Shown: positions 44,761-47,780 of the stretch, one piece after another
Layout: every line of letters begins with the position of its first letter
Position numbering within the stretch: the stretch's first letter is position 1
DNA from: Eledone cirrhosa
Lineage: Eukaryota
Direction: 5' to 3'
Assembly (NCBI GenBank): GCA_964016885.1
Contig: OZ024743.1
Coordinates: 68,758,001 to 68,822,000 of the forward strand
DNA length: 64,000 nucleotides
Notes under the pieces: generated by a model
What the model was told of the DNA's origin: nothing
Seen by the model: the letters and a program-made list of their open reading frames with translations, nothing else
Database searches by the model: none
Translations under genes and position numbers: made by a program

Positions 44761-45447
44761 CGTCACAAGAAGATATAGTGATACAAATGCAGGCATTCCT
44801 AATTTTCAAGGTTCATTTATTGTAAGCAAACAAAGGGTTTTCATTAAGTGGCTATAATAAATGATGGAGAGACCTGCAAAAATGGTCAAGTGTCTACAAT
44901 CACCACCCCTCCCCCACACACACATAAACCACACATATATATATAAAAAACACACTCTTATACCTATATATGTATATAGAACATTAGTCTACGACCTCTT
45001 TTATACCATAAACGTGGTTTTGTCTTTGCGCGTAATTGTTTTTCACCGCTCCTATTAATGACGTATTATTCGTTTTTTCCCGTTCTTTGCAAGCGAACGT
45101 TACCACGAACCAATGTATCGTCTTCCTGTCTTCCTCCGGTTGCAACGTTTTTTTAAATATCCAGTTCTGCGTTTACAGATTGACTTTGTTAGTTTCAGAA
45201 GATCCCGTTAAGGGTGAAAGCAGCGATTCTTTGCTTAAACTTTAATCTGTTATTTTAATATATATATATATATATATATATATATATATATATATATATA
45301 TATATATATATATATATATACACATATATATATATATACAGATATATATATATACATATATATATATATATATATATATAAAAGACGTAAAATAAGAAAA
45401 TACTTTTTTAAAAAATTTTAAAAAATTTTTTACTTACTTAAATTTTC

Positions 45448-45529
45448 ACTCCAACTAATTAGTTTCTGCAATGGGATGAAGACAGTTACGTAATCCAACT
45501 GTCAAGAATTCATTGCGTCATCAGGGAGT
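45448..45529 (-). ncRNA. Type I HHR with extended stem II; the tandem partner at 46001-46082 has GAAA->CAAA
   Basis: Reverse complement: actcc CTGATGA c gcaatg..gacagtt..aactgtc..cattgc a GAAA ctaattag TT ggagt. Confidence 0.85.
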
Positions 45530-46478
45530 CTATTCTCAGCTGAGTCTCCAGGCAATGCGCGGACACTGGCGGCTCATATAAAAATAATAATAATTCGGTA
45601 GATAGAACAGCTAGCGAGGACTGGATTCCATGTACTGAAATTGGCACTGCTTCTAGTCAAATGGCCGATTCTAAAGAATCAATCACGTGACACAGAGGCT
45701 AGTTAGAAGGAATCAGATGGTAAGATGACTGACGCCTACTAACACCCCCAAAAATTTAGAAGTGGTTTTGGCAGGTTTGCTCGACAAATCAGTGATTTGG
45801 AGATAAATATAGATAATTTAATATATCAACTAGCATAAGCGCACAGGTGCACGTCCATGCCAGCAAATACACAGGTTATGTCATAGTACCTAGGTGATTC
45901 AATGCAGGAGGATGCAGAACAATAATATAAAAGACGTAAAATAAGAAAATATTTTTTTAAAAAAAATTTTTAATTTTTTTACTTACTTACTTAAATTTTC
46001 ACTCCAACTAATTAGTTTGTGCAATGGGATAAAGACAGTTACGTAATCAAACTGTCGAGAATTCATTGCGTCATCAGGGAGTCTATTCTCAGCTGAGTCT
46101 CCAGGCAATGCGCGGACACTGGCGGCTCATATAAAAATAATAATAATTCGGTAGATAGAACAGCTAGCAAGGACTGGATTCCATGTACTGAAATTCTCAC
46201 TGCTTCTAGTCAAATGGCCGATTCTAAAGAATCAATCACGTGACACAGAGGCTAGTTAGAAGGAATGGGATGGTAAGATGACTGACGCCTACTAACACCC
46301 CAAAAAATTTAGATGTGTCACGTGATTGATTCTTTAGAATCGGCCATTTGACTAGAAGCAGTGAGAATTTCAGTACATGGAATCCAGTCCTCGCTAGCTG
46401 TTCTATCTACCGAATTATTATTATTTTTATATGAGCCGCCAGTGTCCGCGCATTGCCTGGAGACTCAGCTGAGAATAG

Positions 46479-46560
46479 ACTCCCTGATGACGCAATGAAT
46501 TCTCGACAGTTGGATTACGTAACTGTCTTTATCCCATTGCAGAAACTAATTAGTTGGAGT
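46479..46560 (+). ncRNA. Type I HHR with extended stem II; the tandem partner at 47029-47110 has CCGATGA
   Basis: actcc CTGATGA c gcaatg aattctc gacagtt ggattacgt aactgtc tttatcc cattgc a GAAA ctaattag TT ggagt. Confidence 0.85.
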
Positions 46561-47780
46561 GAAAATTTAAGTAAGTAAAAAAATTTTTTAAAATTTTTTT
46601 TAAAAATATTTTCTTATTTTACGTCTTTTATATTATTGTTCTGCATCCTCCTGCATTGAACCACCTAGGTACTATGACATAACCTGTGTATTTGCTGGCA
46701 TGGACGTGCACCTGTGCGCTTATGCTAGTTGATATATTAAATTATCTATATTTATCTCCAAATTACTGATTTGTCGAGCAAACCTGCCAAAACCACTTCT
46801 AAATTTTTTGGGGTGTTAGTAAGCGTCAGTCATCTTACCATCCCATTCCTTCTAACTAGCCTCTGTGTCACGTGATTGATTCTTTAGAATCGGCCATTTG
46901 ACTAGAAGCAGTGAGAATTTCAGTACATGGAATCCAGTCCTCGCTAGCTGTTCTATCTAGCGAATTATTATTATTTTTATATGAGCCGCCAGTGTCCGCG
47001 CATTGCCTGGAGACTCAGCTGAGAATAGACTCCCCGATGACGCAATGAATTCTTGACAGTTGGATTACGTAACTGTCTTTATCCCATTGCAGAAACTAAT
47101 TAGTTGGACTGAAAATTTAAGTAAGTAAAAAAATTAAAAAAAATTTTTTTTTTAAATATTTTCTTATTTTACGTCTTTTATATTATTGTTCTGCATCCTC
47201 CTGCATTGAACCACCTAGGTACTATGACATAACCTGTGTACTTGCTGGCATGGACGTGCACCTGTGCGCTTATGCTAGTTGATATATTAAATTATCTCTC
47301 TATATATATATATATATATATATATATATATATATATATACATATATATATATATATATATATATATATATATATATATATATATATATATGTATATATA
47401 TATATATATATATATATATATATATATATATATATATATTTATATATATATATATATATATATATATATATATATATATGTATATATATATATATACATA
47501 TATATATATATATATGTATATATATATATATATATATATATATATATATATATATATATATATATATATATTGTTATATTTGGGGAGGGTCATATTTGCG
47601 TAATATTGCCAGAATTAATAACAGAACACACTCACTGTTTGGTTGGTTTTCGCTTCTCGCTGTCTTTTATATATATATATCTGCGATCTAACTTACTCGG
47701 TCCTCAATGTTGCCATTGACTGACCGGCGGTCAAAAATAATACAGATACAATATAGACAAACACATATATATATAGTTTA

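Follow-up and report, generated by a model that had tools for sequence, protein, structure and literature searches.

The window analysed here is a stretch of 64,000 nucleotides (nt) of Eledone cirrhosa DNA (assembly GCA_964016885.1, contig OZ024743.1, positions 68,758,001 to 68,822,000 of the forward strand), which lies in a 379-Mb contig of a 3.0-Gb assembly. Within a TA microsatellite, it holds a 1.9-kb head-to-head repeat that carries four hammerhead ribozyme motifs and no substantial open reading frame (ORF). Judged from its sequence, this element is genuine, unexceptional and in part decayed; it belongs to a new group of retrozyme families, which appears to behave like a non-autonomous Penelope-like element (PLE). 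The interest of such a decaying copy lies in a rule that governs the ends of insertions across the family, and in the haplotypes that are shared by their arms.

Architecture of the locus

The element consists of two arms in opposite orientation, each composed of more than one copy of a 550-nt monomer. Monomer positions are numbered from the first base past the predicted hammerhead cut (window position 46556), and the features of the element and its target are as follows.

45258..45380: (TA)n target, left side
45381..47297: whole element, an ORF-less 1.9-kb head-to-head repeat within the TA microsatellite
45381..46313, minus strand: left arm, monomer positions ~240-550, 1-550 and 1-78; its terminus is the short (S) site
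46313..46314: head-to-head inversion junction; arm 5′ ends separated by ~66-70 nt on the monomer and overlapping imperfectly by 3-4 nt
46314..47297, plus strand: right arm, monomer positions 309-550, 1-550 and 1-~192; its terminus is the long (L, tailed) site
46556..47105, plus strand: full 550-nt monomer, from cut site to cut site; GC content 36.9%
47184..47297, plus strand: 'tail' between the S and L sites, terminal on the right arm only, with a conserved hairpin at ~47233-47283
47301..47571: (TA)n target, right side

The arms are identical at 840 of 865 aligned nucleotides (25 differences, ~3%). The palindrome that they form is imperfect, in that the arm starts are offset by ~66-70 nt and the right arm alone bears a 3′ extension of ~117 nt. 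Both termini merge into (TA)n and the boundaries of any target site duplication (TSD) are thereby masked: the exact terminus of the left arm is blurred by a TATAT common to element and target (45376-45381), and the L end of the right arm passes through a short (TC) slip into (TA)n. The predicted fold of the 550-nt monomer is more stable than those of shuffled sequences (z −3.8). On either strand, the longest ATG-initiated ORF within the element encodes 27 amino acids (aa), and no ORF for a reverse transcriptase (RT) or GIY-YIG endonuclease is found inside it, so that it does not qualify as an autonomous PLE. A preliminary description of the window had proposed an ORF-less, retrozyme-type element with tandem hammerheads, an inversion near 46313, (TA)n flanks and one dead core per arm; re-examination of the sequence bore out each of these points.

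Hammerhead motifs and predicted cleavage

All four type I hammerhead motifs check at the coordinates first given for them, with spacings of 550 nt for the plus pair and 553 nt for the minus pair.

46479..46560, plus strand: type I hammerhead plus-1, intact core (CUGAUGA at 46484-46490, GAAA at 46542-46545); predicted cut after GUU, at 46555
47029..47110, plus strand: hammerhead plus-2, U4 changed to C at 47035 and a stem I mismatch, G to C, at 47109; predicted inactive
46001..46082, minus strand: hammerhead minus-1, G12 changed to C at 46019; predicted inactive
45448..45529, minus strand: hammerhead minus-2, intact core; predicted cut between 45453 and 45452

The motif has a complete core, a stem I of 5 bp, an additional C between positions 9 and 10.1 and a G10.1-C11.1 pair; in plus-1 it is accompanied by a long stem II and a palindromic helix III (CUAAUUAG). 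The 5-bp stem I, extra C, G10.1-C11.1 pair and palindromic helix III are likewise listed for PLE hammerheads (PMC4209133), from which the present motif differs by an extra A between C11.1 and G12, a long two-part stem II and a GUU triplet. Rfam returned no hammerhead match at the gathering score in the whole window, and at E ≤ 10 only (TA)n noise in the element; because of this, the ribozyme call rests on the core motif together with stem II covariation over 186 copies. Across these copies, drawn from three families, six stem II pairs are kept and two of them show compensatory changes (pair 2: CG 73, TA 72, AT 40; pair 5: GC 108, TA 74). Conservation of stem II through compensatory change argues for selection on the fold.

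The core and cut site are intact in 163 of the 186 copies and changed in 23. The two core changes of this locus, U4 to C and G12 to C, were each seen once, and one mutated core per pair fits ordinary decay. Hammerheads with a short palindromic helix III are described as functioning as dimers (PMC4209133). Since each arm retains one intact core and release requires two cuts, the locus is predicted to be cut no more than once in each arm and not to free a monomer in cis; the idea that transcription from either direction would yield the same 550-nt monomer or circle could thus not be upheld here. Two intact cores mark an 'active' copy in the animal retrozyme survey of Li, Clavereau and Pollet 2026 (bioRxiv 10.64898/2026.07.22.740005); this locus lacks them, and the units without core changes of another insertion (L111) possess them. 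Read-through transcription of the locus might produce a double-stranded RNA hairpin. At three other insertions, the inversion junction lies inside helix III and is accompanied by short reiterated pieces of the palindrome (L020:1370-1433; L017:1384-1433; L004:2055-2075).

A group of young, dispersed families

A search of the genome with the monomer uncovered a young, dispersed family. For family A, to which this locus belongs, 40 of 1680 first-look candidates were scored and yielded 94 matches (first-look candidates, here and below, are not copy numbers); full-length matches are 97-99% identical. A diverged copy at window 6142-6877 opened the way to family B (536 nt, 76% identical to A), and further matches led to families C (526 nt) and D (529 nt); pairwise identity among the families is 70-87%. 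The copy at 6142-6877 is itself a family B fold-back, with its S end on the left and its L end on the right, followed by a long (TC)n.

After removal of refetches and duplicated insertions, 48 of 129 records were retained for family A, 37 of 39 for B, 28 of 30 for C and 30 of 30 for D. Duplicates in family A were counted once (six copies on C3, three on C25, four on C10/C2 and two pairs), and a locus with two very short copies, both S+L (L220), was excluded from its counts. Fold-backs, in which two arms are joined head to head, account for 90 of the 143 sampled insertions (71/113 in A-C and 19/30 in D), and their inversion points are scattered. The preliminary description had thought both the monomer size and the fold-back layout unusual. 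Neither impression survives comparison: animal retrozyme consensus lengths of 51-972 bp, with an origin from PLEs, are reported in bioRxiv 10.64898/2026.07.22.740005, and inverted head-to-head copies are standard for PLEs (PMC8557442, PMC3846280), as they are among the relatives counted above.

Some single insertions recur within tandem or dispersed duplications of 4-5 kb (L009-L013 and L022 at C3 139.3-139.5 Mb; L027-L029 on C25; L085-L087 on C10 and L118 on C2). One locus (L127:1-4582, G000:C4:181135500-181140081) holds an array of eight or more family B units in tandem, in which variants form mosaic patterns; it may be a source of multimeric transcripts or a satellite at an early stage.

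Two fixed 3′ ends

The arms end on their 3′ side at one of two sites, termed S (position ~78 in family A, ...TTACGTCTTTTATAT) and L (position ~195), both of which enter (TA)n. L ends often gain a (TC)n or (TATC)n slip, and S ends join cleanly. Among the 71 fold-backs of families A-C, 58 pair one S end with one L end, none has two L ends, 12 have one end elsewhere and a single copy was scored as S+S (L248), doubtfully, since its second end is 6 nt short and has no abutting TA. Family D was examined after the rule had been framed, with counts read from the table; its 19 fold-backs comprise 15 S+L, no L+L and 4 with one end elsewhere, alongside 11 one-way copies. Over families A-D, S+L pairing is found in 73 of 74 fold-backs that have both ends at or near a fixed site, the L end being ~117 nt longer. 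One insertion that a regular-expression classification had called L+L (L078) proved to be L+S by boundary mapping.

The queries forced the L end in families B and D and the S end in family C, so that the other end is the informative one. That end is S in 25/25 cases in B and 15/15 in D, and L in 11/12 in C; the rule holds in 22/22 for family A, where the ends were largely unforced. One-way copies of families A-C (n = 42) comprise 16 that end at S, 23 that end at L and 3 others. A family A insertion scored among them (L003) has in fact the order S, other DNA, L, with 375 bp of unrelated DNA (2029-2402) between the S-ended arm and a 37-nt L-ended arm. In L220, two tiny family A fold-backs, with one S and one L end each, flank a small fold-back of another PLE-like terminal repeat (2331-3384); this is serial insertion into one (TA)n.

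The stretch between the S and L sites contains the conserved hairpin. Covariation within it is weak, with both-sided changes at 2 of 31 predicted pairs, and the single-sequence fold of the tail has a z of about −2.2 in families A and B.

Shared arm haplotypes and 5′ ends

The two arms of an insertion resemble each other far more closely than arms of different insertions. At polymorphic sites of family A, comparison of the two arms within an insertion shows a difference in 3 of 270 cases, as against 30.9% between loci. Rare variants, defined as those seen in at most two loci, recur in the opposite arm in 60/148 cases in A, 44/145 in B and 6/49 in C (within-locus pairs being non-independent), and are shared between loci at rates of 0.2%, 0.8% and 0.4%, respectively. 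At this locus, the full units beside both 3′ ends carry 499T and both far units carry 499C, T occurring at that column in 2 of 79; L039 shows the same in-register unit pattern at two sites. Such a pattern fits a template with distinguishable units, either a linear multimer or a larger circle, better than a single 550-nt circle. In L111 and L009, private variants are identical across all units, as rolling-circle copying would give.

The 5′ ends of arms are enriched just past the predicted cut. Of 224 ends, 32 fall at +1 to +20 where 10.3 are expected (Poisson P 4.5e-8), and 15 fall at −20 to −1 against 8.4 expected; family D alone shows 8 at +1 to +20 against 1.8 (P 5e-4). The expectations correct the positions at risk for the query, and a looser count (43 against 11.6), inflated by over-extension of alignments, was replaced by this stricter one. 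The excess fits template 5′ ends made by the hammerhead, with most passes reading through uncut sites. Junctions between arms have an overlap of 1-5 nt in 30 of the 58 S+L copies and are flush to +2 in 9 of 58.

An autonomous PLE in the same microsatellite

Adjoining the element in the same (TA)n is a second insertion.

47572-51092: fold-back copy of an autonomous PLE, with a 675-aa RT/GIY-YIG-type frame (ORF 48099-50126, minus strand)

Its protein falls into Atlas clusters with HTH_animal, RVT_1 and GIY-YIG, and a search of PDB with it gave no match. The family to which it belongs is very young: from 38,764 first-look candidates, 150 matches were scored, nearly all of them 100% identical. Many copies have an open frame of 1216-1217 aa and a tandem period of ~4.1 kb. 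This PLE has an Asn-rich N-terminal part and a terminal repeat of its own with a minimal hammerhead near 47800, and shows no sequence similarity to families A and B.

Twenty fold-backs of the neighbour were chosen from adjacent minus/plus matches, of which 14 were called by script and 3 by eye; two of the remaining three lack an anchor and one runs into a tandem copy. In 17 of the 17 callable fold-backs, a short end is paired with a tail of 44 or 57 nt. Because this autonomous PLE obeys the same rule, the rule is not peculiar to the retrozyme. Rare variants are also shared between its arms (16/33, against 1.4% between loci).

No partner bearing the sequence of the retrozyme families was found in the neighbour PLE, in 30 GIY-YIG loci, in a second young PLE family or by an nhmmer scan of the fetched loci, a search that covered a small part of more than 10,000 GIY-YIG candidates. 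The GIY-YIG loci, the second family and the nhmmer scan brought up further retrozyme copies and nothing else. Likewise, within this partial search no ORF-bearing PLE has the unit as its pseudo-long terminal repeat (pLTR). PLE ORFs beside three insertions (L044, L046 and L047) were rejected as partners, (TA)n lying between. Some copies of GIY-YIG PLEs have T-rich 3′ ends that resemble the S end, a likeness that proved loose and not significant. The second young family (27,135 candidates; L221:5912-9000 and L259-L288) is likewise very young and autonomous. It has a 775-aa RT-bearing frame, which in L221 is preceded by a separate 476-aa frame, an arrangement unusual for single-ORF PLEs.

A proposed model of two-ended integration

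We consider it probable that these non-coding hammerhead families are moved in trans by a PLE, and that fold-backs arise when both ends of a cut TA microsatellite prime on one RNA at sites ~117 nt apart. An RT-endonuclease, probably a dimer, would bind the RNA structure that lies between S and L and nick both strands of a (TA)n target. Two complementary DNAs (cDNAs) would then be made, one from S and one from L, each heading to the 5′ end of the RNA, after which their ends would be joined by microhomology and the second strands filled by host repair. As template, the model takes a multimeric transcript whose hammerheads have been cut only in part, with its 5′ end often set by such a cut; circles may contribute at some stage and give rise to tandem units. 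The present copy has decayed since it was inserted. A wider proposal, for which we judge the chances to be even, is that PLE integration is intrinsically two-ended, one RNA being copied twice from fixed sites that flank a structured tail and the cDNAs being joined head to head. If true, two-ended integration would explain inverted pLTRs, one-sided tails and one-way S or L copies in retrozymes and autonomous PLEs, and the four families would form a large natural record of the process, with signs that the hammerhead cut sets the template 5′ end.

Several points weigh against this reading of PLE mobilisation and priming of one RNA from both ends. The hammerhead, with its extra A and GUU triplet, goes unrecognised by Rfam. 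In 45 of the 58 S+L fold-backs, one arm lies inside the other, and most single copies are thus compatible with copying of the second arm from the first. The locus samples are best-matching copies, non-random and biased to long and young insertions. Both priming sites have TAT(AT) in common with the target; for the element PAc of Anolis, a non-homologous start of reverse transcription is reported (PMC11167929). Variants shared by arms could also mean that a single donor locus supplied two sister transcripts, or that the arms later underwent gene conversion. The +1 to +20 interval for 5′ ends was picked after families A-C had been viewed, and the excess there could be due to stalling of RT at the ribozyme fold. 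Because the partial search found no autonomous partner, PLE mobilisation is argued from insertion signatures only. In the neighbour PLE, 6 of the 20 fold-backs have near-symmetric junctions (5′ ends at most 40 nt apart), so that snap-back, or else the halting of two cDNAs at one template end, does occur in some insertions.

Snap-back is the foremost alternative, and we regard it as unlikely. In this case a cDNA primed on RNA would fold over and serve as its own template, with endonuclease resolution at the remaining fixed site defining the second end. Self-priming has been proposed for Penelope elements of Adineta (PMC3846280) and the tail has been ascribed to endonuclease resolution (PMC8557442). 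Snap-back accounts for the shared haplotypes and for the rule of one end of each kind, fits the near-symmetric fold-backs of the neighbour at least as well as two-ended priming does, and is favoured by several copies whose 5′ ends are close modulo one unit (L005, L015, L016, L079 and L250 among them). A second arm copied from the first cDNA would lie within the first. Of the 58 S+L copies, 36 have the S arm nested in the L arm, 9 have the reverse and 13, this locus included, have neither arm nested in the other; 11 of the 13 miss containment by over 50 nt. (For L051 and L068, the arm lengths obtained are wrong owing to a broken chain, and both stand outside the 13.) Barring extra template slips, containment therefore fails in 13/58 copies and, by eye, in about 5/21 autonomous copies. 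Snap-back would moreover need to proceed in both directions, and an L-first form with a loop of less than 50 nt fits 3/58 copies.

It is very improbable that the palindrome is a selected design, a functional bidirectional retrozyme whose two strands would both give one and the same 550-nt monomer or circle: since each arm has a dead core, two cuts in cis are not expected, and inversion points and arm lengths vary freely, as they would in a by-product of insertion. That the units are solo pLTR fragments of a 5′-truncated autonomous PLE, and not a non-autonomous family in their own right, gains some plausibility from the frequent truncation of PLE insertions to a terminal repeat (bioRxiv 10.64898/2026.07.22.740005) and from the small share of the GIY-YIG candidates that the partner search covered. 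This reading is nevertheless highly unlikely, in view of several complete head-to-tail units without intervening coding DNA (L111, L037 and the array of at least eight in L127) and of the arms at 143 loci, none of which runs into a PLE ORF, the inspected ORFs lying behind (TA)n or belonging to other families. Palindromes beside long (TA)n are hard to assemble, yet an assembly or read fold-back artefact is scarcely credible, and the palindrome is probably genuine, given arms that differ at 25/865 bases and each have sequence that the other lacks, two ends at two family-wide sites, and the same rule at dozens of loci with different junctions.

Relation to known systems

Animal non-LTR retrozymes have monomers of ~300 nt and a GC content below 45%, form circles, and have PLEs as candidate mobilisers (Cervera and de la Pena 2020, PMC7229834). 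The present families resemble them: their tandem units are non-coding and low in GC, each carries a type I hammerhead motif, and they occur as dimers to multimers. The families differ in a monomer longer than ~300 nt and in mostly dispersed insertions of 1-3 units, often head to head. Neither inverted copies nor fixed 3′ ends are described in the available text of PMC7229834 (where 'inverted' has 0 matches) or of bioRxiv 10.64898/2026.07.22.740005. Plant LTR retrozymes, with a type III hammerhead in the LTRs, a primer binding site and polypurine tract, and a 4-bp TSD, do not match the element: its hammerheads, having an open stem I, are of type I, and its units stand in tandem and are not bounded by LTRs.

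Endonuclease-bearing PLEs are known for an inverted 5′-truncated copy and for a tail of 30-40 bp that is often confined to one end (Craig et al. 2021, PMC8557442; Arkhipova et al. 2013, PMC3846280). Shared with them are the head-to-head inverted copy, partial tandem, one-end tail, microsatellite target and hammerhead near the 3′ end. The tail is longer here (~117 nt, not 30-40), RT and GIY-YIG ORFs are lacking, and the partial search gave no partner. The Poseidon element PAc of Anolis offers a biochemical parallel, its protein cutting and extending both target strands and two internal RNA starts defining the tail (Frangieh et al. 2024, PMC11167929). PAc in vitro and the present insertions have in common two RT start sites downstream of the hammerhead, an AT-rich target and extension of both strands, which in our case are deduced from insertions. 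Unlike those of PAc, the sites here are separated by 117 nt, have TAT(AT) in common with the target and occur in pairs, one at each end of a fold-back; 5′ ends are enriched at the hammerhead cut, where PMC11167929, in its available text, found no RNA-seq reads ending.

Head-to-head 5′ inversions also arise in LINE-1 by twin priming, that is, by two priming events on one RNA. The second primer there acts at variable internal sites and the arms have no template overlap, whereas in the present families the two sites do not vary and the arms are copied from overlapping stretches.

The literature search found neither a strict short and long pairing nor a two-ended priming model for PLEs, older Penelope papers cited in the available text of PMC3846280 describing the one-sided tail at least qualitatively. 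The search likewise found no report of cephalopod retrozymes, and the main text of a paper on Octopus vulgaris repeats (PMC13282606), as far as available, makes no mention of ribozymes or retrozymes. The origin of PLE inverted terminal repeats and one-sided tails is called open in PMC8557442 and PMC11167929. Prior evidence that PLEs move retrozymes consisted of co-occurrence and pLTR homology. To this can be added that a hammerhead repeat without an ORF has left insertion scars matching those of a PLE active in this genome; the short and long rule and shared arm haplotypes also yield a prediction that is testable in the published in vitro PLE system.

Minor observations

PLE 5′ regions often contain a short intron. 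At window 46571-46667, a GTAAGT lies 16 nt past the cut and a CTAG at about +112; these might delimit a candidate short intron.

Elsewhere in the window, inverted 60-bp tandem repeats ~670 bp apart lie at 24909-25142 and 25810-25966, and similar sequence is found upstream of the PLE ORF at L044. Broken non-LTR RT fragments, which we take from their motifs to be RTE/CR1-like, occupy 42941-43933 on the minus strand. A minisatellite of 33-bp units (14.8 copies) and two long low-complexity tracts rich in ACC/ACT are present at 61163-61650, 62148-63848 and 22493-23063.

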